This document shows, one piece after another, positions 5,406-34,940 of a stretch of DNA of 50,903 nt (its first letter is position 1; each line of letters begins with the position of its first letter). The translations under genes and the position numbers were made by a program. Below the pieces are notes generated by a model. The model saw only the letters and a program-made list of their open reading frames with translations, was not told the DNA's origin and did not search any database. This DNA comes from a virus (Duplodnaviria; Caudoviricetes): IMG/VR virus record IMGVR_UViG_3300037845_000048, positions 1 through 50,903 of that record, one strand, 5' to 3'.

Positions 5406-5894
5406 ATGAGCGAGCCGAACAGCCGCAACCGGACCGCCGACCGCGACTTCGACATCTGGCAGCGATACAGCGACGGCCAAACCCAGGAGCAAATCGCAGC
5501 CCATTACGACCTCAGCCAACCGCAAGTCAGCGCGATCATCGCCCGCATGCGCGACGACATCCCCATCGAAGAACGCCGCGCACGCCAACGCCGCCAACTC
5601 GCCGACCTCGACCACCTACGCCAAGCCGCACTCGCCCTCGCCGACGCCGACCCCATCCCCGCCTACTCCAACGGCCGACCCATCATCCTCGCCGACGGCC
5701 ACACCATCGCCGAAGACCACACCAGCCGCGTCCGCGCCATGGACCTCGTGATCAAACTCCAAGAACGCGAAGCCAAAGCCCTCGGCACCGACGCCGCCAC
5801 CAAAATCAACCTCGAAGCCGAACAGACCGGCGAACGCATCAAATCCCTCCTGCGCAGGATCGCCGGCCAGAGCACCACCGATGACGCAGATTGA
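5406..5894 (+). CDS. terS: terminase small subunit (N-terminal HTH)
   Basis: GGGAGG RBS, HTH 'QTQEQIAAHYDLSQPQVSAII', and overlap with terL. Confidence 0.75.
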   Translation: MSEPNSRNRTADRDFDIWQRYSDGQTQEQIAAHYDLSQPQVSAIIARMRDDIPIEERRARQRRQLADLDHLRQAALALADADPIPAYSNGRPIILADGHTIAEDHTSRVRAMDLVIKLQEREAKALGTDAATKINLEAEQTGERIKSLLRRIAGQSTTDDAD

Positions 5895-7383
5895 CCTCGG
5901 CGCAGCCCAAGCCGACATCGACGCACTCATCCGCACCGGCAACCTCAAAGCCCTGCGCGCCCTCGAAGCCGACCTTCAATCCGTCGCCGACCGCATCGAG
6001 GCCGGCCAGCGCCAGGAACGCTGGCAGCACGACCCGGCCGCGTGGGTCAGCGAGCGCCTGGGCGGCTTCGCGTGGTCCAAGCAGCGCGAGATCCTTGCCG
6101 CGGTGCGCGACCATCGGCGCACCGCGGTGCGCTCCGGGCACGGCGTCGGCAAGTCGCACACCGCCGCGCTGGTCGCGTGCTGGTGGCTGGACACCCACCC
6201 GCCGGGCTCGGCGTTCGTCGTGTCCACGGCGCCGACGTTCCCGCAGGTGCGCGCGATCCTGTGGCGCTACATCCGCCGACTGCACACCGCCGCCGAGCTG
6301 CCCGGGCGCGTCAACCAGACCGAATGGTTCATCGACGACGAGCTCGTCGGCTACGGGCGCAAGCCCGCCGACACCGACGAGTCCGCGTTCCAGGGCATCC
6401 ACGAACGCTACGTGCTGGTCCTGATCGACGAGGCGTGCGGCATCCCCGAACAGCTGTGGGTCGCGGCGGACTCCCTCACCACGAACGTGGACTGCCGGAT
6501 GCTCGCGATCGGCAACCCCGACAACCCCGCATCGCACTTCCGCAAGGTGTGCGCCCCCGGCTCCGGCTGGCACACGATCGGGATCTCCGCGTTCGACTCC
6601 CCGAACCTGTCCGGCGAGCAGGTGCCCAAGAAGATGGCGCTCAGCCTCGTATCGCGCGAATGGGTGGAGGAGAAGCGCGACGAGTGGGGCGAGGACAACC
6701 CCCTGTATCGCTCCAAGGTCCTCGGCGAGTTCTCCGTCGACCACCCCAATCAGGTGGTGCGCCAGTCGGACGTGGCCGCGTGCCGACTGCCGGCCGAGAC
6801 CGCGCCGGCGGGGAAGGATCTGCTGCCGGTCGAGCTCGGCGTGGACGTCGGGGGCGGCGGCGACGAGACGGTGATCCGGGAGCGGCGCGGCCGGGTCGCC
6901 GGGCGGGAGTGGCGGGCGCGCACGGACCGGCCGGAGGCGATCGCGCCGTTGGTGCTTCAGGCGATCCGGGAGACCGGCGCGTCCGCGGTGAAGGTGGACA
7001 GCATCGGCATCGGGTTCGGGGTGATCGGCGAGCTGCGCAACATGGGCGCGGAGCTGCACCGGGCGCATGTGCAGGCGGTGAACGTCGCGGAGAAGCCGCA
7101 GGACCCGGACAAGTATGTGAACCTGCGCGCGGAGCTGTGGTGGGAGATCGGGCGCGGCCTGTCGGAGCGGGGAGGGTGGGATCTGTCGGGGATGGAGAAT
7201 GCGGATGTGACGGTCGCGCAGTTGCTGGAGCCGCGGTGGGAGATCGATGCGCAGGGGCGTATCAAGGTCGAGCCGAAGGCGGAGGTGATCAAGCGGTTGG
7301 GGCGCTCGCCGGACAACGCCGACGCCCTTCTTCTAGCTTTCTACGTGGGTCGTCGTCCGGGTTACCGTTCGTTCCAGCGTTGA
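5881..7383 (+). CDS. terL: terminase large subunit
   Basis: Walker A 'SGHGVGKS', Walker B 'VLIDEA', 'IGNP', and nuclease motifs 'LGVDVG' and 'SPDNADAL'. Confidence 0.95.
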   Translation: MTQIDLGAAQADIDALIRTGNLKALRALEADLQSVADRIEAGQRQERWQHDPAAWVSERLGGFAWSKQREILAAVRDHRRTAVRSGHGVGKSHTAALVACWWLDTHPPGSAFVVSTAPTFPQVRAILWRYIRRLHTAAELPGRVNQTEWFIDDELVGYGRKPADTDESAFQGIHERYVLVLIDEACGIPEQLWVAADSLTTNVDCRMLAIGNPDNPASHFRKVCAPGSGWHTIGISAFDSPNLSGEQVPKKMALSLVSREWVEEKRDEWGEDNPLYRSKVLGEFSVDHPNQVVRQSDVAACRLPAETAPAGKDLLPVELGVDVGGGGDETVIRERRGRVAGREWRARTDRPEAIAPLVLQAIRETGASAVKVDSIGIGFGVIGELRNMGAELHRAHVQAVNVAEKPQDPDKYVNLRAELWWEIGRGLSERGGWDLSGMENADVTVAQLLEPRWEIDAQGRIKVEPKAEVIKRLGRSPDNADALLLAFYVGRRPGYRSFQR

Positions 7384-7473: not shown

Positions 7474-9716
7474 TCAGGCTTCCAGCGGGCCGAACATCTC
7501 CCGGAAAGCCCCCAGCGCCTCGGCGAGAACCTCCGGGTCGTCCACGATCGCGCGCATCCACGACGGAACCAGGAGCCGCAGCGTCGAGGCCAGCGGGTCA
7601 CCGTCGCACACGTCCGCGATCGCCAACTCGAACAGCAGCGGCAACCCGAAACCGGCGCGCTCGGTCCCCCCCGCCTTGGCGATCCGGGGGTAGAAGTGCT
7701 CGATGTTCCAGTGCAGGTCGTTGGCGGCGGTGAGGCGCCGCATGATCTCGTCGGGCTCGGGCAGGATGGTGGTCTTCATCGTTTCTCCAGTCGTGGCGTA
7801 GGGATGGTCGGTTAAGCGCTGGCCGACTGTGCGTGCTTCTCGCGCCACGCCTTGTCCACCGCGGCCTCGAACGCCCGGCGCGCGTCGCCCTTCAGACGTG
7901 CGCGGACCTCGGCGTAGTAGTCGTCATCGACCAGGGCCAGCGCGATATTGATCGCACGGCCACGCGTGTGACGGCCGGAAGCCACGTCAGGCCCCCGTCT
8001 CGTGGTCGCCGTGGCCGTTCTCGCAGTGCCAGCACGGCGGGTTGATGTGGCACGAGCAGCCCCCGCACTCGCCGTCGCCCGAGATCATGCTCTGGCGTCG
8101 CGCAAGACCCTCGTCGCGGCCCCATGCGGTCTCCGGTAGCCACGAGGCGCCCTGCGGGATCTGCCCGGCGACGAACCGGTCGTAGTCGCGTTCCTCGGGG
8201 GTGAGGTTGCGCCAGATCGCGAGACGGCGCTCCTGCGCGGTCACCGGGACTCCAGCGCGGCCTTGACAGCGGTCTTCACGGCTGCGTCGCGCCAGGCGAT
8301 CAGCCGCTCCGGGATCATCGTCTCCTCCACCGCCACATACCCCGGACGCGGGTTGCGCGAGGGGTCGTCGTCGACCTCGTCGAGCAGGTACAGGCCCAGC
8401 AGGATGTCGTCCAGGCCGCCGTCGTCGCTGTCCGGGTCGGTGACCATCGGCGCCCACGCGGTGGACATCCCCAGGGGCCGCAGGCTCTTGTTCACGGCGT
8501 CCGCGGTGATCCGGGCCATCCTGTCGGCCTGTGCGGGGGAGTTGGCTTCGATGTGGTGTAGCTGGGCGACCAGGCGGCGGTAGAGGGTCACTTGGCCACC
8601 TCGGCAGCCGCTTGGACGGGTGCGGGTGCGAGCGGGAAGCCCCACACCGAACGCCCGTCGGGCATCACGATCTCCCACGGCCCACGGAACAGCCCGTACG
8701 CGGTCCAGTCGCAGCCGCGCTCGGCGATGGAACGGCCGCCGTCATCGGTCGGCTCGCCCTTCAGTGCGCCGCGCCAGCGCCCCATGCACTCCTGGCCGAG
8801 GCGTCCCTCTTCGCCCTCGGGGAAGTCGCCGACGACGGCGATGTCGCCGCAGCGCGGGCATTGGAACGCCCACGTCTTGGGGTCGGGACCGAAGCGTTCG
8901 GCGGCCTCGGCGCACAGTTCGGCCTGCGTGAGTTTGCGGTGGGTGTTCAGGTCGGTGGTCATGTCAGGCTCCGTTCTTCGCGCGCTCGTCGGCGAGGTAC
9001 TGCCGGGCGACCTTCACGCCACCCTCGACGGCCTCCCGCGAGATGGCCGGTGCAACGCCCGCGGTGAGGAAGTTGGCGATCCACTCGGCGAGGTCTTCGA
9101 CGCTCGCCGTACGCCAGCCCTCCCGCGAACCAGTGGCGTGCGGCAGGGCGTAGGCCACCTCGCGGCGGAAGTAGGCGCGCAGCGCCTCGAAGTCGAGTTG
9201 GACGCCATCGGCGTTGTATGCGTCGGCGAGGGTGGCCTGTTCAACAGGCATATGAGTTGGCGACATCTCGGGCATGTGTCAGGCTCCGTTCTCGGTGGCG
9301 AGCTTCGCCTCGTTGGCCGCGATCATCAACGCGATATCCGCGTTGCCCGCAGCCGCACGCGCGAACTCGGCGATCTGCCCCGCCCCCCGCACGCCGCTAC
9401 CGGCGGCGGCCAGGGCGAGCATGTCGTTCGCGGCCTGGTCCAGCAGCGCGATGGCCTCGGTCAGGCGCGCGACGGTGCGGGCGGTCTCAGCTTGGTCGCG
9501 AGTCTGCGCGCCGCCCTCGTCCACCGGGCGCAGGTTCAGCGCCAGGACGTGCCAGGTGACGCGGTAGGCGACGCCGGGCTCCCGGTCCTGCTCGACCGCG
9601 AACTGGTCGGCCATCCACGGCCCGTTGACGGTCCCGGTGTAGGTCTTGCCGGTGCGCTGCGAGCTCCAGGTGACGCGGTCGCCGGGCTGGTACTGGACGG
9701 TGGTCGCGGTGGTCAT
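7474..9716 (-). CDS. leftward operon of small hypothetical genes (7474-7779, 7812-7985, 7987-8244, 8241-8591, 8588-8962, 8964-9275, 9279-9716)
   Basis: Closely spaced or overlapping ORFs with RBS-like motifs. 8588-8962 has the conserved-looking 'FQCPRCG...GQECMGR...GCDWTAYGLF'. Confidence 0.6.
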
Positions 9717-9745
9717 CGGGTCTCCGATTCGGGTCGGGAGGCGGT

Positions 9746-10171
9746 TCAGGCGGCGAGTGCGAGGGGGGCGGTGGTGCGGGTGTCGAGCATGGTGGCGGCC
9801 ACGTTATGCACGCAGTGCCCGGTGTAGGTGTAGCCCTTGCAGGTGCACGAGCCCTTCAGGGTGTCCACGACGTACCCGTCCCGGCCGCTGCTCGATACCG
9901 CCAGGTACCGCCAGGCGTCCAGCGGGATCAGGCCGCCGAGTTCGACGATCTCCTCGGCCTTGGCCTGCGCGGTCTTGGCGTCGGTGAACGCGGCGAGCTG
10001 CGCCTGCACGGTGCGGCGGGTGAGGGCGATGCGGTGGCGCAGGCTGTCGGTGTCGATGACCCACCGGCCGCCGGCCTTGACGGCGGAGACTGCGCCGATC
10101 CGGCACCAGGTGCGGATGGTGGCGGTGGTGACGCCTGCGTGGCGGGCGGCTTCGGCGGTGGTGGTGGTCAT
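9746..10171 (-). CDS. HTH (excisionase/MerR-like) plus SWIM zinc-finger protein
   Basis: N-terminal 'TTAEAARHAGVTTATIRTWCRIG...GGRWVID' and C-terminal 'CTCKG...CVH'. Confidence 0.7.
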   Translation of the reverse strand: MTTTTAEAARHAGVTTATIRTWCRIGAVSAVKAGGRWVIDTDSLRHRIALTRRTVQAQLAAFTDAKTAQAKAEEIVELGGLIPLDAWRYLAVSSSGRDGYVVDTLKGSCTCKGYTYTGHCVHNVAATMLDTRTTAPLALAA

Positions 10172-10180
10172 CGGGGGACT

Positions 10181-10264
10181 CCCTAGTCGGTAATGCTTGC
10201 TACATGACTAGTGTCTAGCTTCCGGATACTGGTGTCAAGTACCTAGGGCCGGTAGGCTAGGGAC
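10181..10264. promoter_or_regulatory. divergent promoter/operator region
   Basis: - strand TTGACA (10238-10233)-17 nt-GACACT. + strand TAGGCT (10253-10258) lies 6 nt before ATG 10265. Five CTAG tetramers. Confidence 0.55.
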
Positions 10265-10492
10265 ATGACGCAAGAGTTAATGGGACTACATGAGGTCCGC
10301 ACATTGCTGGCCGTCAGCCAGCAGCGCGCAGGCCAGATCGTCCAGAAACCCGACTTCCCCACGCCCGTTACCCACCTCGCATGCGGCAGGATCTGGGACG
10401 GCGACGCGATCCGCACCTGGATCGCTGCGTGGCGGCGCGCGGCGGGCCGACCCAAAAGCAGCGCGACCGACACCGCGATGAAGGTGGACTGA
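10265..10492 (+). CDS. AlpA-like DNA-binding regulator
   Basis: 'LMGLHEVRTLLAVSQQRAGQI...PDFPTP...GRIWDGDAIRTW'. Confidence 0.75.
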   Translation: MTQELMGLHEVRTLLAVSQQRAGQIVQKPDFPTPVTHLACGRIWDGDAIRTWIAAWRRAAGRPKSSATDTAMKVD

Positions 10493-10493
10493 C

Positions 10494-13400
10494 ATGGCCG
10501 CAGCGGCAAAAGGCATCCGCATCCACATCGACTACCCGCGCTCGATCCGCTGCCTGCTGGGCGTCCACGACAAGGGCGACGCCGAACACGGATGCCAGGG
10601 CGGCTTCAAACCGGTGCTCGGCCGGGCCGTGCGTTTCTGCCAGTGCGAGTGCCATGAAAGCGGTGAGTGACATGGCTCAGGCGTTCGGCAACAAGGTCCC
10701 CGTCACCATCGAATACACGCTCGACGTCAGCCAAGTAGTCGCCGCGTTCGAGGCCATCGCCAATGCGCGCCCTTGGCACTTGGCCAGCGGCGGCAGCGTC
10801 ACCATCCCCTTCACCGGCATCTTCGATAACGGGGCCACCGACGCACCGAAGGAAGGCGGCTGACATGGCCGAGCCGTCCCTCGGCGCCCTGCGCGCCGCC
10901 AGCGCGAACCTCATGGCCGCCAACCTCGCGCTGAGCATGTTCCCGTACGCGGCGAAAGCCGCCGTCGACCACGAGCAGTACATCGCCCGCGCGGCCACCC
11001 TCGGGTTCGACCGTGAGACCGCCCAGCGGGTCTCGGACGAGGTCTGGCGCAGCGGGATGGTCCCGAGCTCTGAGATCTACCGGTGGGCGCTCATGCGCCT
11101 CTACGAGCTTCTCGACGACCCCAAGCCGAAGCCGATGACCGTGGAGGATGCGCGCCGGATCGTCTCGGCACTCGCCAACTGCAAGGGCGGCGAGTGACAT
11201 GGACGCGGCTTCCTGCGCAATCCTCGCTGAGGGCGCGCTCCGGTTCGAGATCAAATGGGGCGACGAATCCGGTACCGCCGTCGCTGCGAACCAGTTCATG
11301 CGTGACGGCAAACTGATCCACTTCTGGTGGATCGATACCACCCGCATGAAGCAGTCCTACGTGCTCACGCTGCATAGCGCGGGCATCAGATCGATCCGGC
11401 CGGTCTACCCACCGAAGGAGGCGTGAGATGGCTCAGGCGTTCGGCAACAGGGTCCCCGTCACCATCGAATACAAGCTCGACGTCAGCCAAGCGGTCGCCG
11501 CGTTCGAGGCCATCGCCAAACAGTGCGCCGACGCGGCCGAGGCGCTGCGGAAGCTGGCCGCCGAGCAGGACGAGGCGCCAGAGGACTCAACGCCCGAGCC
11601 TCCGGCCCGGGACCTGCTGCGCGAGGCGTGGACCGAGCGCAAGGCAGGCGCCTGACGTGAGCGTCCCCCTGAGCGTCCCGCAGGAGCGCATTCTGCTCGA
11701 ACTGTTCGGCCGAGGTCGCGCCATCAGCGTCCGCGACCTCTGCGAAACCATCGGCATAGACCCCTCCGACTGCATGCGCGCCTGCACGGGTCTTTGGCTC
11801 GCCGACATGATCAAGCGCCAGTACGGCTTCGAAGAAGGATCCGACAACGCCTGGTACTCGATCACGTGGATCGGCGAGAAGTGGCTGGCCGACCGCCCGC
11901 AACCATCCACCACGCCCGCGCCTGCGCCGCGTCGCTGGTGGTTCCGGCTGACGCGCAGCTCCGCGAAAGCAGGCAAGTGACGTGTGCACCTGTGGCCTCG
12001 ACAACTGCACCGAATGCAACCCCGGCGAACCCGAGCACCCCGAAGGCACCCTCGAAGCGGCGGCCTGGCAGCTCCATGACGCCGCCGCCGCCCTGTGGTG
12101 GTCGATCGTCGATGGGCTGCGCCTCGAACGCGTGGTCGACTGGTGGATCGCCCGGAAGGCGGGTGGATGACGTGGGATACCGCTCCGGCCCCATGACACC
12201 CGCACTGGTCGGCGGCGTCACAGCCGCGATGGCCATGGCGAACCTCACCGCCGCACTCGGCGGCTGCCCACACCCCAACGCCGTCCCCGTCGAACTGCTC
12301 GACGACGGTCAGCGCGTCGCCGTGCTGTGCCCGGACTGCGACACGCAACTACCCGCCGAATGGCGCACCGCCGAAGAAGGCGCGGCACTGGAGCGCGCCA
12401 AGGCGGCAGCGGTACTCATCGGCGCCGGGTTCGACCCGGCCGATGCGCTCGAAGTCACAGGGGGCGAGTGACGTGACCCTCGTCCGTATCCGCACCCACC
12501 GCCTGACCCTCCGTCAGGCCTGGCGCTACCGGCTCCCGCTCACCCGCCGCTGGCGCTGGACCTGCGACACCTGCCCCGCCACCGACTGGCGCGGCCACCG
12601 CACGCAGGACGCCGCGAAGAGCGGGATGGTCCGGCACATCGACGAAAGGCACACACCGTGACGCACGCGCTATGCCCGAACTGCCAAGAACCCATGACGC
12701 TAAAGCCGATCCCGTGCCCCGACGGGAATCCCGGGTGCCTCGTCTTGCACCGGTCGCTCGTCTGCGCGCCGTGCCAGCAACGCCAGTGGGAAGAGCGCGA
12801 CCGGCCGGCCACGATCGGCGAGCTGGCGGAGCTGAGCCGCAGGCTCGACCAGCTGGGGGCTGGAAAGTGACCCAGGTCCGCGTGCGCTCCGAGAACGGCT
12901 ACACCCTCACCTACGACACCGGCGACGTCGAAAACGTCCACGTGAGCGCCCTGAACCACACCATGGAGATCCCCAGCGGCTACGCCATGCGCCGCGAGCC
13001 GACTGGGTTCATGTCCATGGACCTGCACATCGACTTCAAGTACGGCAAACAGGCGTCGTGGGTCAAGGACGAGGAACTGGCCGATACGTCCGACGTCGCG
13101 CTCGGGGCGATCGATGACTGACCCGCTGGACGCCTACCAGCTCGATCTCAAGCCACCCGAACCGGTCGCGTTCGACTACAGCACGTACGAGTGGCTGATC
13201 GCCGAGTATCAGCGCATCGACGCCCTCTACGGGCCGCGCCTGACCCGCGTGTCGGGGTGTGAGCCGCTGGTGCGCTGGTTCATGCGGCAGTTCCCCGAAG
13301 CCGACCCGGGCGTGAGCGCGGTGACGCTGCTCGGCTCGATCGCGCTGACGATCGACGACGACGTGCCGATCGACTCCCTGCGGCTGGCCTATGCGGACGG

Positions 13401-17815: not shown

Positions 17816-18082
17816 ATGTCGGTCGGCACCATCACCCCCCCGCGCAACGCCGCCAGACCCCGGGACAGGTGGCGAAGCGCACGCACGGCACTCGACGCGG
17901 CGAGGCGTAGAGGTGCCACGGTGGTCGGCGCGGTGCGGCACCACAACTGGAGCCCCGCGCTGACCATCAGCGGACTCTCCTGCATCGACGCCGCGTTCTA
18001 CCAGCACGGGTGGTTCGCCGGACTCCTCGCCACCGGCATCAGCGCCCTGGTCTACGACTGGTCCCGCGAGCGCGGCGCATGA
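17816..18082 (+). CDS. small membrane protein preceding portal
   Basis: GGGGAGG RBS, two hydrophobic segments, ATGA overlap with portal. Confidence 0.6.
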   Translation: MSVGTITPPRNAARPRDRWRSARTALDAARRRGATVVGAVRHHNWSPALTISGLSCIDAAFYQHGWFAGLLATGISALVYDWSRERGA

Positions 18083-19575
18083 GCCTGATCGGCAAAGCCC
18101 TCGCCGTGCGCAACAAGGCCCCCATCCCCCTGGACAACGGTCGCGCCTACCGCCGCGGCGTCGCGTTCAACCTCGGCAACGGGCGCGCCGACGCCGAGAC
18201 CGCGATGCGCCAGTACGGCCTGTCCGGCACCATCTACGGGATCATCTCGCTGCTCGCCGAGACCGCCGCCACCCCGAAATGGCACCTGTACAAGAAGCAG
18301 CCCGTCGACGGGCGACGCAGGTACACCACCGCGGACAAGGGCACCGACCAGCGCATCGAAGTCGTGCAGCACGCGGCGATCCAGCTTTGGAACTCACCCA
18401 ATGCGTGGCACTCAAGGTTCGAATATGCGGAGGGTTGCCAGCAGCACGAGGAGCTGACCGGCGAGACCTTCTGGGTCCTGGACACGGACGCCGGATTCCC
18501 CACCAGCATGTGGTACGTACGCCCCGACCGCATGGAACCGGTCCCCGACCCCGACAACTTCCTCGTCGGCTGGATCTACCGAGGCCCCAACGGCGAGGAC
18601 GTCCCCCTGCGGGCCGACGAGGTCATCCTCGAGAAGCGCCCCAACCCCCTAGATCCGTACCGGGGTGCCGGGCCGGTCGCGTCGATCATGCCGAACATCC
18701 AGCAGCAGCGGTACGCCACCGAGTACCAGCGCAACCTCTTCTTGAACGGCGCGGACCCCGGCGGCGTGATCACCGTCCCCAACCGGCTCACCGAGCCACA
18801 GTTCGACGAGCTCGTGGACCGGTGGCGTGAGGCCCACCGCGGCGTCGCCCGCGCCGGACAGGTCGGCGTCCTGGAGGACGGCGCCACCTGGGCGCCCAAC
18901 GCCCACACCAACAAGGACATGGAGTACGGGCAGCTGCGCCTAGCCAACCGGGACGAGCTGCGCGAGGCGTGGCGCATCCACAAGGCCATGATGGGCACCA
19001 GCGACGACGTGAACCGCGCGAACTCGCAAACCGCGCAGGAAGTGTTCGTCGCGTGGCAGGTGCTGCCCCGCCTGAACCGGCGCCGCGACACCCTGAACAA
19101 CAAGCTGCTGCCGCTGTTCGGCAACGCCGACAAGACCGTCGAGTTCGACTACGAGGACCCCAGCCCCGAGAACGCCGAAACCGCGGCCCTCGAGCTGAAA
19201 GAAAAAGCGCAGGCCGCCCAGGCACTGGTCAACGCCGGATACGACCCCCACGACGTCCTCGAGACCGTCGGCCTGCCGGACATGGACGTCGTCGAGACCG
19301 CCACGCAGGCCCCGGCGCTACCCCCCGCGTGGGTACCGGCCGCGCCCCCCGCGCCCGAAACCGCACCCGCCGGCGCACCGGCCGTCCCGGCCGCGCGCGA
19401 ATCGATCAGCGTGTGGGCCAGCGCCCCCCCGATCCCGCAACTGCCCGCGGCCACGCAGGAACCCGAAGCCGAACCCGCACTGGACATCGCGCCGCTCGCC
19501 GCGTTCCTGCGCCACTCACTGAACGGCCGGATGAACGGCCACGCGATCAACGGAGACTCGGAGGCCCGTCGATGA
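18079..19575 (+). CDS. portal protein (HK97 family)
   Basis: 'LTGETFW', 'RPDRM', 'PLDPYRGAGP', 'FLNGADPGGVI', 'VLEDGATW...DMEY'. Confidence 0.9.
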   Translation: MSLIGKALAVRNKAPIPLDNGRAYRRGVAFNLGNGRADAETAMRQYGLSGTIYGIISLLAETAATPKWHLYKKQPVDGRRRYTTADKGTDQRIEVVQHAAIQLWNSPNAWHSRFEYAEGCQQHEELTGETFWVLDTDAGFPTSMWYVRPDRMEPVPDPDNFLVGWIYRGPNGEDVPLRADEVILEKRPNPLDPYRGAGPVASIMPNIQQQRYATEYQRNLFLNGADPGGVITVPNRLTEPQFDELVDRWREAHRGVARAGQVGVLEDGATWAPNAHTNKDMEYGQLRLANRDELREAWRIHKAMMGTSDDVNRANSQTAQEVFVAWQVLPRLNRRRDTLNNKLLPLFGNADKTVEFDYEDPSPENAETAALELKEKAQAAQALVNAGYDPHDVLETVGLPDMDVVETATQAPALPPAWVPAAPPAPETAPAGAPAVPAARESISVWASAPPIPQLPAATQEPEAEPALDIAPLAAFLRHSLNGRMNGHAINGDSEARR

Positions 19576-21020: not shown

Positions 21021-22454
21021 ATGGCCCCGACGATGAAAGTCCCGACCGACTCCGCCGGGATCATGGAACTGCTCAACGACGAGACCGCCCTCAAGGCCCG
21101 GTTCAGCCGGGAGGCCGTGGCCAACGGCGACACCAAGGAATTCCTGGACGCCTACGCCAAGATGTACCTGAAGAGCAACTCCGACACCGTCGACGACGTG
21201 CGCGAACAGGTCCAGTCCGTCATCTTCGACCTGGTGCGCGACAACGGCGCCAAACGCGGCCCCAAGCTCGGCGTGTCCATGGACAGCGGGCGCCCCCAGC
21301 TGAGCGTCGACGGCACCGCCCGCGTCTCGCGCGGCCGCGGCGCCGTCTACAACAAGACATCCGCCGGGGCGCAGCTGGAGCGGGCGTACAAGCCCGCGGA
21401 CCGGTTCAACTCCATGGGCGAGTACTGCAAGGCGATCTTCGAGCTGCGCTCCCCGTCCACCCGCGCGGACCGCGACGACATCATCCGCAAGCTCGACAAC
21501 GTGCGCACCTTCCAGAACTCCTTCGGCTCGGAGGAGCCGGGCGCCGGCGGGTTCCTCATCCCGGAGATCATGCGCTCCGAGCTGCTCCAGCTCGCGCTGG
21601 AGGAGTCGATCGTGCGCAACCGCGCGACCGTCATCCCCATGTCCACGCTGCGCGTCCCCATCCCCACCGTGGACGACACCAGCCACGTGAGCAGCGTGTT
21701 CGGCGGGATCGTGTTCTACTGGACCGAAGAGGCAGCCGCCCTCACCGAGTCCACCGCAACCTTCGGACGTGTCACCCTTGATGCCAAGAAGCTGACAGGA
21801 TTCTTCAAGGTCCCCGCCGAACTCCTCGACGACGCACCCGCGTTCGGCGCCTGGTTCGACGAGCGCGTCCCCGCCGGCCTCGCCTGGTTCGAAGACATCG
21901 CGTTCATGACCGAAACCGGCGCCGGAACCCCCGAAGGGTTCATCAACTCCCCCGCGTCCGTGTCCGTCACCAAGGAGACCGGGCAGTCCAGCGGCACCAT
22001 CGTCTGGGAAAACATCGTCAAGATGTACTCCCGCATGCTCCCCACCAGCCTGAAGAACGCCGTGTGGATCGCCGCCATCGACACCTTCCCCCAACTCGCC
22101 ACCATGGCCCTGTCGGTGGGCACCGGTGGCGGACCGGTGTGGATCGGCGGCTGGTCCCAGCCCGGCTCCGACCTGCCCCCCATGACGATCCTCGGCCGCC
22201 CGGTGATCTTCACCGAGAAGGTCCCGGCACTGGGCACCACCGGAGACATCAACTTCGTCGACCTCAGCTACTACCTCATCGGCGACCGCCAGCAAGTCCG
22301 AGTGGACTCCAGTGAGCATTTTTTGTTCGCCAATAACCAGGTCGCTTACCGTTTAATTTCCAGGGTTGATGGTAGGCCATGGATTCAGTCAGCCTTGACC
22401 CCCCACAACAATGGACCGAGTTTAAGCCCTTTTGTCCAGATTCAGACCCGCTAA
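21021..22454 (+). CDS. major capsid protein (HK97 fold)
   Basis: 'GGFLIPE', 'WTEEAAALTES..TFGRVTL.AKKL', 'TILGRPVIFTE', 'RVDGRP', and position after the protease. Confidence 0.93.
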   Translation: MAPTMKVPTDSAGIMELLNDETALKARFSREAVANGDTKEFLDAYAKMYLKSNSDTVDDVREQVQSVIFDLVRDNGAKRGPKLGVSMDSGRPQLSVDGTARVSRGRGAVYNKTSAGAQLERAYKPADRFNSMGEYCKAIFELRSPSTRADRDDIIRKLDNVRTFQNSFGSEEPGAGGFLIPEIMRSELLQLALEESIVRNRATVIPMSTLRVPIPTVDDTSHVSSVFGGIVFYWTEEAAALTESTATFGRVTLDAKKLTGFFKVPAELLDDAPAFGAWFDERVPAGLAWFEDIAFMTETGAGTPEGFINSPASVSVTKETGQSSGTIVWENIVKMYSRMLPTSLKNAVWIAAIDTFPQLATMALSVGTGGGPVWIGGWSQPGSDLPPMTILGRPVIFTEKVPALGTTGDINFVDLSYYLIGDRQQVRVDSSEHFLFANNQVAYRLISRVDGRPWIQSALTPHNNGPSLSPFVQIQTR

Positions 22455-22482
22455 AGCGCTCTGACGCTGTACAATTGGGGGT

Positions 22483-23106
22483 ATGCCAGGAAGAGCTAAA
22501 TGCGAGCCCGGATGTGACTGCGAAAAGCACAACCGGCCCCGCATGTCCCCAGAGCAGGCCGCCGAAGCCACGCGTGAACGGGCTCGGCGCCACTACGAGA
22601 AGAACAAAACCAAGATCCTGGAGCAAGAGCGACAGGAGCGGGCTGATCCCATCAAGGGTGAGGCCAGAAGAAAGCGGGAACGGGAACGCATCGCCGCACT
22701 GCCCGAAGAGCGGCGGGAGCGCCAGCGTGAGATGACTCGCGACTGGTACCGGCGCAATCCTCGTTCCCCCGAAAAGAACGCGGAGTTGCACTACAAGCAC
22801 CGCTACCGGATGACACCGGAGCAGCGAGAGGAGATGATCGCCATGCAGGAAAGCCGCTGTTACCTGTGCGGCGATCCGCTCCCCGAGGACCGGCGCAAGA
22901 TCCATGTGGATCACGACCATTCCTGCTGCCCGGACAGGTCGTGCGGAAAGTGCGTTCGTGGCATCGCCTGCGATCCCTGCAACCGGGGGGTCGGGTACTT
23001 CGCCGATGACCCCGGCCGGATGGAACGAGTGGCCCGCAATCTGCGGGCGGCCAATGACCGCGTGCGTGCACAGAGGGATCGAGACGTAAGCGAGGTAGGG
23101 GTATGA
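22483..23106 (+). CDS. endonuclease VII-family homing endonuclease
   Basis: 'QESRCYLCG...HVDHDHSCC...VRGIACDPCNRGVG'. TACAAT lies 7 nt upstream of the ATG. Confidence 0.85.
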   Translation: MPGRAKCEPGCDCEKHNRPRMSPEQAAEATRERARRHYEKNKTKILEQERQERADPIKGEARRKRERERIAALPEERRERQREMTRDWYRRNPRSPEKNAELHYKHRYRMTPEQREEMIAMQESRCYLCGDPLPEDRRKIHVDHDHSCCPDRSCGKCVRGIACDPCNRGVGYFADDPGRMERVARNLRAANDRVRAQRDRDVSEVGV

Positions 23107-23372
23107 GCGAGGCCCAGGTCCAGATCTCCGAGGTCACCCCCGAGCTGATCCGTGCGGCGATCAAGCGCGGTGATCGGCTGATGGTGTTCGACGGCGGGGA
23201 GCCGATCGCGCTGATCACGGGTGCGGCGGCGGAGCTCGGGCGGCGTAGGGATTTCTTCGTGCATTACCCGCATGAGGCGTCGGAGTGTTTCGGTACGTGC
23301 TGGCGGCACGACGGGCGCGCGGAGGCCGAGGCGGTCCCGGCCGGTTCCGGGCCGGTTCCGGTTCCCGCGTAG
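23103..23372 (+). CDS. hypothetical protein
   Basis: ATGA overlap and GAGG RBS. Confidence 0.55.
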   Translation: MSEAQVQISEVTPELIRAAIKRGDRLMVFDGGEPIALITGAAAELGRRRDFFVHYPHEASECFGTCWRHDGRAEAEAVPAGSGPVPVPA

Positions 23373-23379
23373 GCATGAG

Positions 23380-23874
23380 ATGGCGTGGCGCAGCAGGTCG
23401 CGGCGCAGGGCGAAGAGGAGGGCGTATGTGCACCGGCGCGGATATCACATCCACCATCGGGTGCATCACCGCTTCCACCATGTGCGCTTCCACCACGTGC
23501 GCAAGCACAGGGTGCGGTTCCACCATGTCCGCAAGCACCACATCCGGTTCCACCACGTCCGTAAGCATCACGAGCGTCCGCATCACGAGCGCCGCAGGCA
23601 CCATGCGCGGGCACACCGGGCGCGGCGTGCGAGGCGCCGCGCGATGGCCGCGCGGCACCAGCTGCACCGCCACCCCGGCCCGCACCGCCCGCGCACCGGG
23701 CATCCGCGGCACCGAGTGGTGGGGATCCGGCAGCACCGGGCGCACATGCGCCGGCGTTACCGGGCGCAGGTCGGGCGGCTGCGCAAGCCGCGCCACCACT
23801 ACCGCCCGCAGGTGGGGCGCCTTAAGAAGCATCGCGGCTACCGGGCGCAGACCGGGAAGCTGCGCCGCAGGTGA
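23380..23874 (+). CDS. Arg/His-rich protamine-like repeat protein
   Basis: 164 aa: 51 R, 35 H, 8 K, 2 E, 0 D by manual count. Synonymous variation between the peptide repeats supports this frame. Confidence 0.7.
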   Translation: MAWRSRSRRRAKRRAYVHRRGYHIHHRVHHRFHHVRFHHVRKHRVRFHHVRKHHIRFHHVRKHHERPHHERRRHHARAHRARRARRRAMAARHQLHRHPGPHRPRTGHPRHRVVGIRQHRAHMRRRYRAQVGRLRKPRHHYRPQVGRLKKHRGYRAQTGKLRRR

Positions 23875-24001
23875 CAGGGCACCATCCGGGTAGCGGAAAG
23901 CCCCGGCGGCCGGTCCGGTCCCGGGTCCCTACCGTGAACGAGCAAGGCGGCATTGGCACCCCGCCCCAAGCATCCAGCCGCAGCAGGAGGAGGTACCCGT
24001 C

Positions 24002-24445
24002 ATGGCGGGCATGGAGGGCTTGGGGCGCCTTTTCAACATCGTCCCGGTGGCCGTCGGTTTGTGGATCAACTACAAGGACTGCTCCGCGGTCACGTTCATC
24101 TGCACGTCCGCGGGCACCGGTAGCGCGTGGCAGGTGCAGGAGGCCAAGACCAGCGCGGGCGGTTCCGCGCAGGACATCGGCGCGGTCATCTCCCGCTACT
24201 ACACGACCACGGACAACGACGGCTCGGTGGCGTGGACGAAGGTCACGCAGGCCGCCGCGGACGAGACCGGCACGATCGCGGCGGCCACGATCGCGGCGCT
24301 GTGGATTCCGGGTTCGCAGTTGGACGACGGGTTCGCGTATGTGGCGGTGACGGACGCGAACGCGCAGTCCGGCAGCGTGATCGCGATCCTGCACGATCTG
24401 ACGGTGCAGCGCACGCCCGCGAACCTGTCCCTGCCGGGAGAGTGA
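24002..24445 (+). CDS. putative head-associated structural protein
   Basis: AGGAGGAGG RBS, beta-rich, downstream of capsid. Confidence 0.6.
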   Translation: MAGMEGLGRLFNIVPVAVGLWINYKDCSAVTFICTSAGTGSAWQVQEAKTSAGGSAQDIGAVISRYYTTTDNDGSVAWTKVTQAAADETGTIAAATIAALWIPGSQLDDGFAYVAVTDANAQSGSVIAILHDLTVQRTPANLSLPGE

Positions 24446-24451
24446 CCTGAC

Positions 24452-24934
24452 ATGGGCAACTTCATTCAGGGCACGCAGCTTCGCACGCTCAACCAGGGCT
24501 CGATCGTCACCAAGGCCGCGGCGAACCTGCCGCAGTCGGCCACCGCGACGCTGTACACGGTCGCGGGCGGCGCGGTGCTGGTCACCGGGCTGGTCGGGAT
24601 CGTGACCACGGCGATCGCGTCGAGCGACCCGGTGCTGTCGCTGGGCACGGCGCCGACGGTGGGCACGGCGCAGACCTCCGGGATCGCGACCACCACTGTG
24701 CTGACGAGCGCTGAGGCCGGGACGCTGGTCTCGGTGGTGGGGGCCACGACGGGGCTTCCGACGGCGTTGGCGGTGATGGCGACGGCGGCGAAGGCGGGTT
24801 CGACGGTGTTTCTGGGGACGCCGTTCGTGGTGTCGGCGGGGACGATCACGTGGACGACGGGCGCGTCGAAGACGGGCGCGTTGAAGTGGTATCTGACGTA
24901 CATCCCGTTGGATGACGGGGCGTCGGTGTCCTGA
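24452..24934 (+). CDS. putative virion structural protein
   Basis: Rich in T/A/G/V, in the head gene block. Confidence 0.55.
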   Translation: MGNFIQGTQLRTLNQGSIVTKAAANLPQSATATLYTVAGGAVLVTGLVGIVTTAIASSDPVLSLGTAPTVGTAQTSGIATTTVLTSAEAGTLVSVVGATTGLPTALAVMATAAKAGSTVFLGTPFVVSAGTITWTTGASKTGALKWYLTYIPLDDGASVS

Positions 24935-25455
24935 TGGCGGAGCTGATGGGTTGCCTGGGCTGCGATGGCGTGTACGCGGTCGGGCTGCCCGTCTGCCCCG
25001 AGTGCGGGACGGTTTCGCCGAGGTTCGAGGGAGTGGAGGATCGGGTGCCGAAAGCTACGAGCGGTGGCGCGTCGAGCGCGTGGGAGGAGACGCCGGTGGC
25101 CGAGGCGCCGGCCGAGGCGTCCCCGGCGCAGGCCGCGCCCGAGCCGCCTGCGTATGTGGCGCGGGCTGCGGTGGTGGACGATCCGGTGACGCCTTCGGGC
25201 GACGAGGCGCCGGATATCGCCACCGGTTCCGGCATGGAGGTCTTGGCGGCGCCGGATGCGCCCGAGCCGCTGAGCCCTGCGGATGTGGCGGCGGGGTACA
25301 CGGACCTGTCGTACGCCGAACTGCGCGCGGAGGCGAAGGCGCGGGGTCTGCCTGCGGGTGGCAGTGCGGTGGAGCTGGCGGCGCGGCTGTCGGAGCACGA
25401 CGAGACGCAGGCCGCGAGCGACACTGCGGGGGCGGCCACGGAGGGCGGCGGCTGA
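24934..25455 (+). CDS. zinc ribbon plus SAP/HeH-like protein
   Basis: CxxC...CxxC at the N-terminus and 'YTDLSYAELRAEAKARGLPAGGSAVELAARL'. Confidence 0.6.
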   Translation: MAELMGCLGCDGVYAVGLPVCPECGTVSPRFEGVEDRVPKATSGGASSAWEETPVAEAPAEASPAQAAPEPPAYVARAAVVDDPVTPSGDEAPDIATGSGMEVLAAPDAPEPLSPADVAAGYTDLSYAELRAEAKARGLPAGGSAVELAARLSEHDETQAASDTAGAATEGGG

Positions 25456-30665: not shown

Positions 30666-31070
30666 GTGAAGGTCACCGGCCTCGGAGCGACCGTGACAGT
30701 GGGTGACGTAACCAACACGGGCCAGAACATCACCACGGACGTCACCGACTACCAGTTCTCCACCCCGTACGGGGTGCAGGACACCACCGGCGTCGGGAAG
30801 CTCGCGCACGAGCGGCTGCTGCTGCTGGAGGACTTCTCCGTCACGCTCAGCGGCGTGTTCGACCCCGGGGCGTCGCTGGCGCACGTGGTGTTCTCCAGCA
30901 ACAAGCGGGTCGTGCGCTCGGTGGTGATCATCAACGAGACCACGTCCAGCTCGACGATGACGGTGAACTGCCTGTTCACCGACTACCAGGTCAAGCGCAA
31001 CAACACGGGCGAATTGACCTACTCTGCGCCCGGCGTCCTCGCCGACGGCGTCGCACCGGCATGGACATAA
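30666..31070 (+). CDS. major tail (tube) protein
   Basis: 134 aa, beta-rich, immediately upstream of the chaperone. Confidence 0.65.
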   Translation: MKVTGLGATVTVGDVTNTGQNITTDVTDYQFSTPYGVQDTTGVGKLAHERLLLLEDFSVTLSGVFDPGASLAHVVFSSNKRVVRSVVIINETTSSSTMTVNCLFTDYQVKRNNTGELTYSAPGVLADGVAPAWT

Positions 31071-31658: not shown

Positions 31659-34600
31659 GTGAACCTTATCGAGATCGTCGTCACGGCCAAGGACATGGCC
31701 GGCGCCACCCTGGACGAGGTGGACGCCAAGGGGAGCAAACTCGGCCGGTCGCTGGGTGCGATGGGCATGATCGGCGCCACGGCCCTGGCGGGCATCGCCG
31801 TCGAGTCGGTGAAGATGGCCACCACGTACGAGTCGGTCACCACCCGCCTGGTGACCTCGGCCGGCGAGCAGAACAGCAACCTGAAGATGGTCCAGGAGGG
31901 GATGCTGGACATGGCCGGGCAGGTCGGGGTCTCCGCGACCGACCTGGCGAAGGCCATGTACTACGTGGAGTCGGCCGGGTTCCACGGCGCGGACGGCCTG
32001 ACGGTGCTCAAGGCGGCCGCTCAGGGCGCTGCCGCTGAGGGCGCCGATACGACGACGGTCGTGCAGGCGATGACCGATGTGCTGGTGGACTACCACCTGA
32101 AGGCGTCGGACGCGGCAAACGTCACCTCGAAGATGATCACAGCGGTCAGCTTCGGGAAGACTTCGCTCCAGGACTTTTCCAGCGCCTTCTCCAACATCGT
32201 CCCGGCCGCGTCGGCCGCCGGGATCTCGTTCAACGACGTCGCGGGCGCCCTGGCGGAGATGACCAACCACGGGTTCACCGCGCGCCGGGCGTCGACAGAC
32301 CTGGCGCAGGCGCTGCGGTCGCTGCTGAACCCGACGGGGCCGATGACGGCGGCGTTCGTGGAGTTCGGGGTGTCGTCGGACGAGTTGAAGGCGAAGCTGG
32401 CCGGCCCGAACGGGCTCACCGACGCCATGGAGTACCTGTCGCAGAAGGCCGAGAAGGCGGGCAAGGAGGGCACCCCGGCATTCGCCGCCGCTTTGAAGCT
32501 GCTGATGGGCACGGCGCCGGGGGCGAACGCGGCCCTGGCGACGGTCGGCGAGAACTTCGACGCCACCTCGAAGGCGATCGCGGGGATCGGTACGGCGTCG
32601 GCGGACGCGTCGGGCAACGTCCAGGGCTTCGCGGAGATTCAGAAGACCCTCAAGCAGCAGCTCAAAGAGGTCGAAGCCGAGGCACAGTCGCTGGGCATCC
32701 GCCTCGGCGACTTCCTGATCCCGCAGCTCTCGAAGCTGCTCACGTTCGGCACGAACGCGTTCAGCGGCATCGCGTCGGGATTCAGCGGCGCCGCGACGAA
32801 ACCGGTCGCGCATCCGAACGCGGGCAACGCGTTCCTCAACCAGGAGCTGGCGACGCCGCCGCCGCTCACGGGCTGGCAGCGGTTCGGCCAGACCGTGCAC
32901 CAGGTGCTCACCGACATCGAGCAGGGCGCCGTGCGCCTGGAACCGGTGGGCAAGGACCTGCTGCGGTTCGGCGACGAGGTGTGGCAGGGACTGACGAAGC
33001 TCGCACCCGCGCTGGAACCGACGGCGGCGCTGCTGGGCGGCACGATGTTCGTGGCGCTCGAAGCGGTCGGCAAGGTGCTCGCCGACGTGGTCGGGCCGGC
33101 GTTCAAGGACTTCGCGCAGTTCCTCGATGACCACAAGGCCCTGATCGAATTTTTCGCCGGCACGGTCCTGGGCGGCCTGATCGTGAAGATGACGATCCTG
33201 GGCGGCATCAAGGCCGCGCAGGGAGTGGTCGGCCTCGCGACCTCTATCGCGCAGTTCCCCCTGAGCCAGGCCGGGCAGATCAAAACGGCGTTCGACGGGC
33301 TGAAGGCCGCGTGGTCCGGCAAGGAGGCCGCCGAGGGCGAGCAGGCCGTGCAGGGCCTGGCGGGGGCGTTCGGGGACCTGAAGGCCAAGGCGTCCGGGGT
33401 GCTGGACAAGATCCTGCCCGACTCCGGGAAGCTGGCCGGGCTCTCGCAGATGAGCAGCGACTTCGAGGCCGTCAAGATCGAGGCGCAGGCCGCCGACGAG
33501 CAGATATCGCTGTTCGGCGTCACCGAGCAGGGAATCGTCCAGGTCGCCGCGCACCAGCAGTTGGGGCTGTTCGAGCAGGACCTGAGCGACATCGAGACCG
33601 AGGCCGCCAACGTCACCGGCGGCCTGGGGAAGGCGGAGGAGGCTTCGACGAGCCTGGCGGGCAAGCTGGGCAAATTCGCGATGACCGGCGGCGTCATCGG
33701 CGGGGTGCTCGTCGGCCTCGGGATGCTCGGCAGCTACCTCGGGAACCTCGCGGGCGTGGGCGACCATACCGCGCAAAGCCTCGACCAGTTGCAGAGCCAG
33801 CTCCAGCTCGCCGGCAGCGGCTCGATCCAGGCCGACCAGCAGTTCACGAAGATGGCTGTGGGCATGGCGATGGCGCAGACGGCGATCAGCCAGCTGCACG
33901 GGGGCGTCGAGGCCTTCGGGAAGGGGAACGACCAGCAGGTCCAAGGGCTCAAGGACGTGGACACCGCGCTGGCGAACCTGGTCACGGGCGGCCACCTCGA
34001 CCAGGCGAAGGCCCAGTTCGCCGATATCGCGGGCGCCCTGCAGAAGCAGGGCATCGACGCCTCGAGCGCGGCGGCCGACTTCCCGGCCTACGAACAGGCG
34101 GTGAAGAACGCGGGCGACGCGGCGCAGACGACCGACGGGCAGCTGTCCTCGATGCAGGCGTCGCTGAACGAGAATCAGGCCCTGACCGTGTTCAACAGCG
34201 ACCTGGGGACGCTGACGGACCAGCTCAAGGCCAGCGGCAACTCGATGGACGCCACGACGCAGGTCGGGCAGCAGAACCAGCGCATGTTCGAGACTCTCTC
34301 CCAAGACGTGATCAACTACTACCAGCAGCAGCGCGCCGCCGGGGGCGACACGAACACCGCGACGACGATCATGTCGGCGCAGGCGCAGCAGATCGAGAAG
34401 CTGGGCGTGCAGTTCGGGATCTCGAAGAACGTGGTGGACCAGTTCCTCGGGAGCCTGTCGGGTATCAAGCCGTTCTACAGCTTGACGGTGACGGCGAACG
34501 TGGGGCCTGCGGAGCAGGTTTTGAACGGCCTCGTGCAGCGGATCAACGACTCGACGGGGACCGTGCAGATCTACGGTTCGTCGGTGGGGCCCGGCACGGG

Positions 34601-34940
34601 GGGGCGCGCGTTGGGCGGTATGGCGCACGGTGGTGTGGTGGGCGCCGCCGCGTCGGGTGGTGCGCGGGGGAGTTGGACGATGGTGAATGAGCAGGGCGGG
34701 GAGTTGGTGCACCTGCCGACGGGGGCGACGGTGTATTCGAGCCCCGATTCGCAGCGGATGCTCGCCGGCGCGGGTGGTTCCGGTGGCGCCGGCGGTGGCG
34801 GGGTGATGCAGCTCGAAGTGCTGCCCGGGGGGGCGTCGGCGTTCGAGCAGTTCATGGTGATGGCGCTGCGCCAGTGGGTGCGCGCGCGTGGGGGCAACGC
34901 GCCGGACAGCGTGCAGAAAGTCCTCGGGCAGAACTTCTAA
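31659..34940 (+). CDS. tape measure protein
   Basis: 1093 aa, Ala/Gly-rich, TP901-like core, C-terminal 'AHGGVVG...MVNEQGGELV'. Confidence 0.92.
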   Translation: MNLIEIVVTAKDMAGATLDEVDAKGSKLGRSLGAMGMIGATALAGIAVESVKMATTYESVTTRLVTSAGEQNSNLKMVQEGMLDMAGQVGVSATDLAKAMYYVESAGFHGADGLTVLKAAAQGAAAEGADTTTVVQAMTDVLVDYHLKASDAANVTSKMITAVSFGKTSLQDFSSAFSNIVPAASAAGISFNDVAGALAEMTNHGFTARRASTDLAQALRSLLNPTGPMTAAFVEFGVSSDELKAKLAGPNGLTDAMEYLSQKAEKAGKEGTPAFAAALKLLMGTAPGANAALATVGENFDATSKAIAGIGTASADASGNVQGFAEIQKTLKQQLKEVEAEAQSLGIRLGDFLIPQLSKLLTFGTNAFSGIASGFSGAATKPVAHPNAGNAFLNQELATPPPLTGWQRFGQTVHQVLTDIEQGAVRLEPVGKDLLRFGDEVWQGLTKLAPALEPTAALLGGTMFVALEAVGKVLADVVGPAFKDFAQFLDDHKALIEFFAGTVLGGLIVKMTILGGIKAAQGVVGLATSIAQFPLSQAGQIKTAFDGLKAAWSGKEAAEGEQAVQGLAGAFGDLKAKASGVLDKILPDSGKLAGLSQMSSDFEAVKIEAQAADEQISLFGVTEQGIVQVAAHQQLGLFEQDLSDIETEAANVTGGLGKAEEASTSLAGKLGKFAMTGGVIGGVLVGLGMLGSYLGNLAGVGDHTAQSLDQLQSQLQLAGSGSIQADQQFTKMAVGMAMAQTAISQLHGGVEAFGKGNDQQVQGLKDVDTALANLVTGGHLDQAKAQFADIAGALQKQGIDASSAAADFPAYEQAVKNAGDAAQTTDGQLSSMQASLNENQALTVFNSDLGTLTDQLKASGNSMDATTQVGQQNQRMFETLSQDVINYYQQQRAAGGDTNTATTIMSAQAQQIEKLGVQFGISKNVVDQFLGSLSGIKPFYSLTVTANVGPAEQVLNGLVQRINDSTGTVQIYGSSVGPGTGGRALGGMAHGGVVGAAASGGARGSWTMVNEQGGELVHLPTGATVYSSPDSQRMLAGAGGSGGAGGGGVMQLEVLPGGASAFEQFMVMALRQWVRARGGNAPDSVQKVLGQNF

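Follow-up and report, generated by a model that had tools for sequence, protein, structure and literature searches.

We describe here a candidate gene, RH, whose product would be an extremely Arg/His-rich protein, in the late structural block of an uncultured tailed phage. RH lies in the window, that is, the whole 50,903-base stretch of viral DNA that was analysed (68.9% G+C, estimated 93% complete), within a cassette of about 570 bp that is absent from collinear relatives and whose insertion boundaries could be defined. Our best explanation, held with evenly balanced confidence, is that RH is a real but very young, lineage-specific accessory gene and that its product would be a polyanion-binding polycation dispensable for head assembly. 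We consider it likely, though well short of certain, that RH is translated.

The features on which the argument draws are listed in Table 1. An earlier note on this DNA had placed RH between capsid and head-completion genes. Its position in the late structural block stands, but the Endonuclease VII gene and an 89-aa acidic ORF (p89) separate it from the capsid gene, and the two genes downstream, p147 and the 160-aa ORF, have no Pfam or PHROG match that would justify calling them head-completion genes. Pfam (E ≤ 0.01) and PHROGs likewise gave no family for p89 or RH. Among cultured phages, Streptomyces phage Dagobah is the nearest (46% identity in the capsid protein), and prophage relatives (42–55% capsid identity) were found in Streptomyces, Streptacidiphilus, Promicromonospora, Nonomuraea, Micromonosporaceae and other Actinomycetota. 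Because Dagobah and these prophages are actinobacterial, the host is presumably a soil actinobacterium. About 10.6 kb separate the portal gene from the large terminase gene upstream of it, which is unusual in a head module of the siphovirus type, and between them is a minus-strand block (about 7474–10838) with a coding-like GC pattern.

Table 1. Coordinates of the features discussed, in positions of the window.
Feature	Position	Strand	Support or remark
Large terminase	5881–7383		PHROGs
Portal protein	18010–19575		Pfam
Major capsid protein, HK97-type Phage_capsid	21021–22454	+	Pfam PF05065, E 1.1e-50
Endonuclease VII family gene	22483–23106	+	Pfam PF02945, E 1.1e-19; PHROG 2914
p89, 89-aa acidic ORF	23103–23372	+	pI 5.25; gene in public collections
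Left flanking repeat, GC-rich, palindromic	23338–23359		CGGCCGGTTCCGGGCCGGTTCC; left edge of insertion
RH, Arg/His-rich ORF	23380–23874	+	164 aa, 21.0 kDa, pI 12
Pentad array of RH	23455–23604	+	Residues 26–75; DNA period 15 nt and 30 nt
C-terminal units of RH, YR(A/P)Q(V/T)G(R/K)L..., n = 3	23758–23871	+	Residues 127–164; 13–14 aa each
Right flanking repeat, palindromic	23907–23928		Inside hairpin 23902–23925
p147, conserved 147-aa gene	24002–24445	+	Strong GGAGGAGG ribosome-binding site
160-aa ORF	24452–24934		Downstream of p147
SAP-domain protein	24934–25455		Pfam
Major tail protein	30666–31070		PHROGs
Tape measure protein	31659–34940		PHROGs

Retranslation of RH gave exactly the residue counts that the earlier note had reported: 51 Arg, 35 His, 8 Lys and 2 acidic residues in 164 aa, the acidic residues both being Glu (no Asp, no Cys). 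The repeats described there were found as well. RFHHV occurs four times (residues 31, 36, 46 and 56), always before Arg and in three of the four cases before RKH, and YR(A/P)Q(V/T)G(R/K)L occurs three times (residues 127, 141 and 154). The RFHHV copies belong to an array of ten pentads, in order HRVHH, RFHHV, RFHHV, RKHRV, RFHHV, RKHHI, RFHHV, RKHHE, RPHHE and RRRHH; at the DNA level, Tandem Repeats Finder detected 15- and 30-nt arrays at 23470–23596. In-frame tandem repeats, of 15/30 nt and of 39–42 nt, make up about half of the gene, and RH therefore probably grew by repeat expansion rather than from a known family.

The calculated net charge is +59.5 at pH 7, +74 at pH 6 and +89 at pH 5. 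It follows from the composition that the product, if translated, is an extreme polycation whose charge rises as pH drops. By eye, the N-terminal sequence RSRSRRRAKRR looks like that of a protamine. In the pentad region, hydrophobic moments gave no signal for an amphipathic helix (z = −0.1 at 100 degrees) or for a strand pattern (z = −0.7 at 180 degrees). A model of RH as an amphipathic helix of the histatin or antimicrobial-peptide type is thus unsupported, and a membrane-active helical peptide is disfavoured.

The place where RH sits is variable throughout this virus group. We retrieved 80 viral loci by their capsid protein (50–93% identity), 71 of which have the capsid gene and p147 in this order. 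The two genes are at most 145 bp apart in 49 of the 71 loci, and the remainder carry assorted inserts: an Endonuclease VII gene in L008, L010, L014, L015 and L020, p89 in five loci and, in a few others, small acidic ORFs of 73–97 aa. The gap in the window is the largest, at 1547 bp, and holds three inserted ORFs. The capsid–p147 junction (22454–24002 in the window; loci L002 to L081) is an insertion hotspot. The slot contains no basic ORF in any of the 71 syntenic viral loci, so a search at this place for ORFs of similar composition, as the earlier note had proposed, comes out negative for these loci. The same was true of 22 actinobacterial prophage loci: RH is missing from all of them, and none of 11 compositional candidates is a coding-like His/Arg-rich ORF. 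Because RH is absent from 71/71 viral and 22/22 prophage loci, it does not belong to the conserved head machinery. Nor can it be an essential head component, since phages with capsid proteins 75–93% identical to that of the window do without it. The proposal that RH is a packaged DNA-condensing core protein or a pH- or metal-responsive polycation survives in part: polycation character and a pH-dependent charge follow from composition if RH is translated, but the packaged-core half finds no support and is weakened by the absence of RH from the 71 loci.

Alignment with the five p89-bearing loci showed about 500 extra bases in the window. Their left end falls within the C-terminal tail of p89, and their right end immediately precedes a GC-rich hairpin, which in the relatives lies directly 3' of p89. 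The hairpin in the window has no U tract, and its counterpart is shared with the relatives. The repeats that flank the insertion are imperfect, 77% alike and 569 nt apart. In being found in one lineage only, absent from otherwise collinear relatives and clearly bounded, the cassette resembles morons, and it resembles morons and late-operon cassettes in that its slot also takes an Endonuclease VII gene and small ORFs and in its GC-rich, hairpin-like flanks. It appears to differ from morons in three respects: a scan confined to sigma-70-like sites, and so to promoters other than the actinobacterial and phage late types, detected none 5' of RH, the downstream hairpin is ancestral, and there is no known donor sequence.

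The insertion changed the neighbouring p89. This protein was found in only five related loci (L002, L003, L004, L007 and L020), and no relatives of p89 turned up when genomes were searched. Its homologues share an invariant block, YPH..ECF..CWRH(D/N)G, possibly a metal-binding motif. In the window, an aberrant VPAGSGPVPVPA end, encoded by the left flanking repeat, replaces the acidic C-terminal tails of the relatives. A second p89 variant, P0006, is 98% identical and keeps the tail of the window. On the other side of the cassette, the leader of about 125 nt 5' of p147 (23875–24001) is made up of the hairpin and, after it, blocks such as GAGCAAG and GGCAnTGnC. It stays conserved between loci even where the coding sequence next to it has diverged, and may serve the late operon as a terminator, an attenuator or a processing element.

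The openness of the RH frame says little. Two of the six frames over this stretch have no stops and two have one, and in DNA of 68.9% G+C, with three other frames showing no stop or a single one, ORF length alone is uninformative. The case for the frame thus rests on codon-position statistics. GC content at codon positions 1, 2 and 3 is 0.78, 0.52 and 0.88 in RH, compared with 0.59, 0.47 and 0.89 in the capsid gene; this is the canonical pattern of high-GC coding sequence (GC1 below GC3, low GC2), it includes the non-repeat part of RH and it continues for 270 nt past the pentad array. Mean ln RSCU of RH is 0.397, within the range of 0.325–0.629 obtained for 18 reference genes of the window. 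The competing antisense ORF (23215–23832) and +2 ORF (23285–23893) scored 0.046 and 0.005, and both were rejected on codon usage and atypical GC by codon position. By itself the codon-usage score is weak support, as 0.397 or more is also reached by 8 of the 36 shadow ORFs that lie within real genes. Judged by their position-wise GC, the high-scoring shadows seem to lie on the minus strand, in the frame whose third positions coincide with those of the real gene; the only other frame sharing the third positions of RH contains seven stops.

A further line of evidence comes from how the repeat copies differ. As stated in the earlier note, they vary by CAC/CAT, CGC/CGG/CGT and GTG/GTC. Among the three 30-nt copies, variable columns at codon positions 1, 2 and 3 number 2, 2 and 7 of 10, with 10 synonymous and 5 non-synonymous codon differences; by our own hypergeometric estimate, the chance that at least 7 of the 11 variable columns fall on third positions is about 0.012. 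This excess implies that the copies diverged under peptide constraint. The C-terminal repeats show no such bias (6, 5 and 7 of 11), and in eight pentads it is not clear (3, 3 and 5 of 5). Selection on this frame, which had been claimed for the repeats in general, is therefore modestly supported by the 30-nt copies and not by the C-terminal ones.

Signals for expression are mixed. The ATG of RH lies 7 nt past the p89 stop, and its ribosome-binding site is weak, only AGG at 6 nt upstream. A p89–RH fusion by frameshifting was rejected, because RH, lying in frame +1 with respect to p89, cannot be reached by a −1 slip. The RH ORF is missing, with either start, from the public protein collection, which contains both of its neighbours; gene callers therefore did not record it.

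Part of the stretch is contained in seven sequencing runs; four were compared, and the remaining three (X5 to X7) contain small shares of the sampled words. Of the four, X1 may be where this DNA comes from, and sequence of the RH region recurs in three other soil data sets. One, from another soil study (X2), has identical contigs over 22900–23287 and 23595–24500, with 23288–23594 uncovered. A soil metatranscriptome (X3) has identical pieces at 22900–23316, 23381–23531 and 23712–24273, with 23532–23711 uncovered; neither this gap nor that in X2 carries any weight. As the X3 contigs come from an RNA library, they give a hint, and only that, that the RH stretch is transcribed. The third (X4, soil, 2018) represents a second genotype. 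Its 485-nt contig over 23154–23636 has 12 differences from the window. The 10 of these 12 that are listed all fall at 23198–23294 in p89, none in RH, and 9 of the 10 are at third codon positions, which argues for purifying selection on p89. A second X4 contig (23642–23828) is identical to the window, and differences resume in p147. A low-depth X4 piece at 23834–23872 with small indels was disregarded, its match spanning only 39 nt. Recurrence in independent data sets shows that the repeat region is not an assembly artefact. That the RH block is identical in two genotypes with differing flanks suggests either that recombination has spread it recently or that it arose very recently; since the one other genotype shows no difference across RH, dN/dS could not be computed for it.

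Relatives of RH were sought widely. A word-indexed protein search of 5.8 billion clusters gave no match at E ≤ 0.01 or at E ≤ 10. An exhaustive HMMER search (phmmer) of 1.84 billion representatives returned four matches (E 2.5e-7 to 7e-4), all rejected as homologues because they are low-complexity repeat proteins with units such as HITSHH and HGVRS. One of them, P0004 (149 aa), has a signal-peptide-like start followed by pentads of the RRHHV/RIHHV type and is the only match that resembles the RH pentads; a search for its genomic context found none. The ESM Atlas gave no usable match, and a scan of viral contigs with RH peptide patterns yielded nothing. A degenerate DNA pattern for FHHVRFHH had two matches in viral contigs, both rejected as chance occurrences with stops around them, and a scan of metagenome contigs had one, L084, which we judged to be a chance repeat. 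A search of 185,579 genomes for an exact 45-mer was negative, and neither blastn against 50,697 phage records nor Rfam gave a match. Run without composition correction, tblastn reported many apparent RH matches in the relatives; these are off-frame, Arg-rich shadows away from the syntenic place. Judged by all of these searches, RH is an orphan.

Taken together, the preferred reading would run as follows. The cassette would have inserted between the major capsid gene and p147, in the hypervariable slot, replacing the p89 tail and coming to lie upstream of the hairpin that appears to end the transcription unit in the relatives. Since RH is upstream of this ancestral hairpin, it would be transcribed with the late capsid operon, and since the p89 stop is only 7 nt before its ATG, it could be translated by coupling to p89. 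Its product would be a 21-kDa extended or disordered polycation chain that, to go by its composition only, may bind a polyanion electrostatically, most plausibly DNA or RNA. Between pH 7 and pH 5, or on metal binding, the 35 His would add to a charge of about +59 and bring it to about +89. We speculate that a ten-residue unit, if extended, would span roughly one turn of B-DNA. If RH is made, it shows with unusual clarity how a new viral gene can arise from tandem repeats, since boundaries, repeat units and the empty ancestral site can all be seen by comparison with relatives. As an extreme polycation tunable by pH, it would moreover have no match among the tailed-phage proteins already described.

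A first alternative, rather unlikely in our view and yet to be taken seriously, is that RH is a neutral proto-gene or non-functional by-product, which arose as repeats expanded and illegitimate recombination took place at the GC-rich hairpin, its frame open and perhaps translated with no selected effect. Such an origin would fit a singleton that is absent from all 71 viral and 22 prophage relatives, has no homologue in protein searches, was skipped by gene callers and has a weak ribosome-binding site. Its identity in two genotypes fits a very recent origin, and the 8 of 36 shadow ORFs that match RH on codon usage point the same way. What speaks for a selected product instead is the third-position excess in the 30-nt copies, which implies peptide constraint, together with a coding GC pattern that also covers the non-repeat part and a frame that is intact in the second genotype. 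If RH is not made, it is a warning of how coding-like the open frames derived from repeats in high-GC DNA can look.

It is doubtful that RH is an internal core protein of the protamine type that is packaged along with the genome to neutralise and condense the DNA in the head. The extreme charge at pH 7, the appearance of the N-terminus and the position in the late structural operon, with the capsid gene upstream and the shared hairpin downstream, are all in keeping with such a role. In Arg dominance and very high net charge RH is like adenovirus pVII and Mu, baculovirus P6.9 and sperm protamines, and it shares with these a place among late or structural genes and an expected non-specific binding of nucleic acid. 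But the relatives with 75–93% identical capsid proteins evidently assemble and package such heads without RH, and we identified no capsid-targeting or protease-site feature in it. Unlike pVII, P6.9 and protamine P1, RH belongs to no family (no Pfam match at E ≤ 0.01, protamine and core-protein families included, and none in PHROGs). Unlike viral core proteins, it has 21% His and pentad repeats, and its virus is a tailed phage; and unlike conserved core genes, it occurs in none of the 71 syntenic loci of its own virus group. The portions of the literature open to our search held no tailed-phage precedent and no tailed-phage Arg/His polycation, which is not proof of absence in print.

A bolder version of this idea, which we regard as improbable, is that soil actinobacterial phages repeatedly invent His/Arg polycations in their structural blocks. 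RH would then be a newborn example, produced by expansion of the 15-nt and 39–42-nt repeats and spreading between genotypes, and its product would be packaged or act during assembly as a pH-switchable counter-ion for DNA. If this were true, no protamine-like core component would have been known in a tailed phage before RH, and RH would offer a live view of a gene being born de novo in a virus.

It is very unlikely that RH is a His-rich metal binder (Ni, Zn, Co or Cu), serving as a store or sponge in the manner of Hpn or of the His-rich tails of metallochaperones. Histatins and the Hpn protein of Helicobacter pylori combine dense His and basic residues with scattered Tyr, Phe and Gly, and their charge depends on pH and metal; in Hpn-like metal binders, His clusters are accompanied by auxiliary Cys, Asp, Glu or Gln ligands. 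RH resembles histatins and Hpn in its dense His with basic residues and its scattered Tyr, Phe and Gly, and would share the dependence of charge on pH and metal; its 35 His (21%) are mostly arranged as HH pairs every five residues. The HH pairs are where the likeness to Hpn-like binders stops, as auxiliary ligands are limited to two Glu, with no Cys and no Asp, and no Pfam or NCBI-type family matches RH. RH further differs from histatins and Hpn in that Arg exceeds His, in its length of 164 aa, in lacking Cys, Asp and Gln ligands, and in showing neither an amphipathic helix signal nor homology. In addition, the 51 Arg would repel cations.

We give hardly any weight to the 15-bp repeats being a DNA-level element (protein-binding iterons or a recombination hotspot) within an incidental open frame: there are six to eight tandem 15-bp units, some with CACGTG, and L084, an unrelated bacterial contig, has a perfect fourfold, near-identical 15-mer in another frame, but unit variation follows the codon positions of RH, the coding-like pattern runs 270 nt beyond the array, no Rfam family matches and the L084 match was picked by design through a peptide pattern. 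The repeat in L084 (CGCTTCCATCACGTC, 3000–3062) lies at the 3' end of an unrelated bacterial gene, and its similarity to the RH unit is probably a coincidence.

Finally, we scanned 160 related loci, 80 of them added by a search with a p147 profile, and the window for look-alikes of RH, defined as ORFs from start to stop that reach 30 aa or more, contain 15% His or more and 45% or more of His, Arg and Lys together, and show a coding-like GC pattern. The scan yielded RH and one 49-aa ORF, at 4759–4908 of L113. This ORF and its counterpart in L157 (4758–4859, cut by the contig end) have no detectable similarity to RH. They are coding-like, rich in His, Lys and Arg and built on KHE(R/A)HVKH repeats, and they belong to distant relatives, where they follow a zinc-ribbon gene at a point farther downstream in the head module. 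The product of 24934–25455 in the window, with its SAP domain near the C-terminus, begins with a CxxC...CxxC pattern that we read by eye as a zinc ribbon, and the zinc-ribbon ORFs of L113 and L157 have a similar start.
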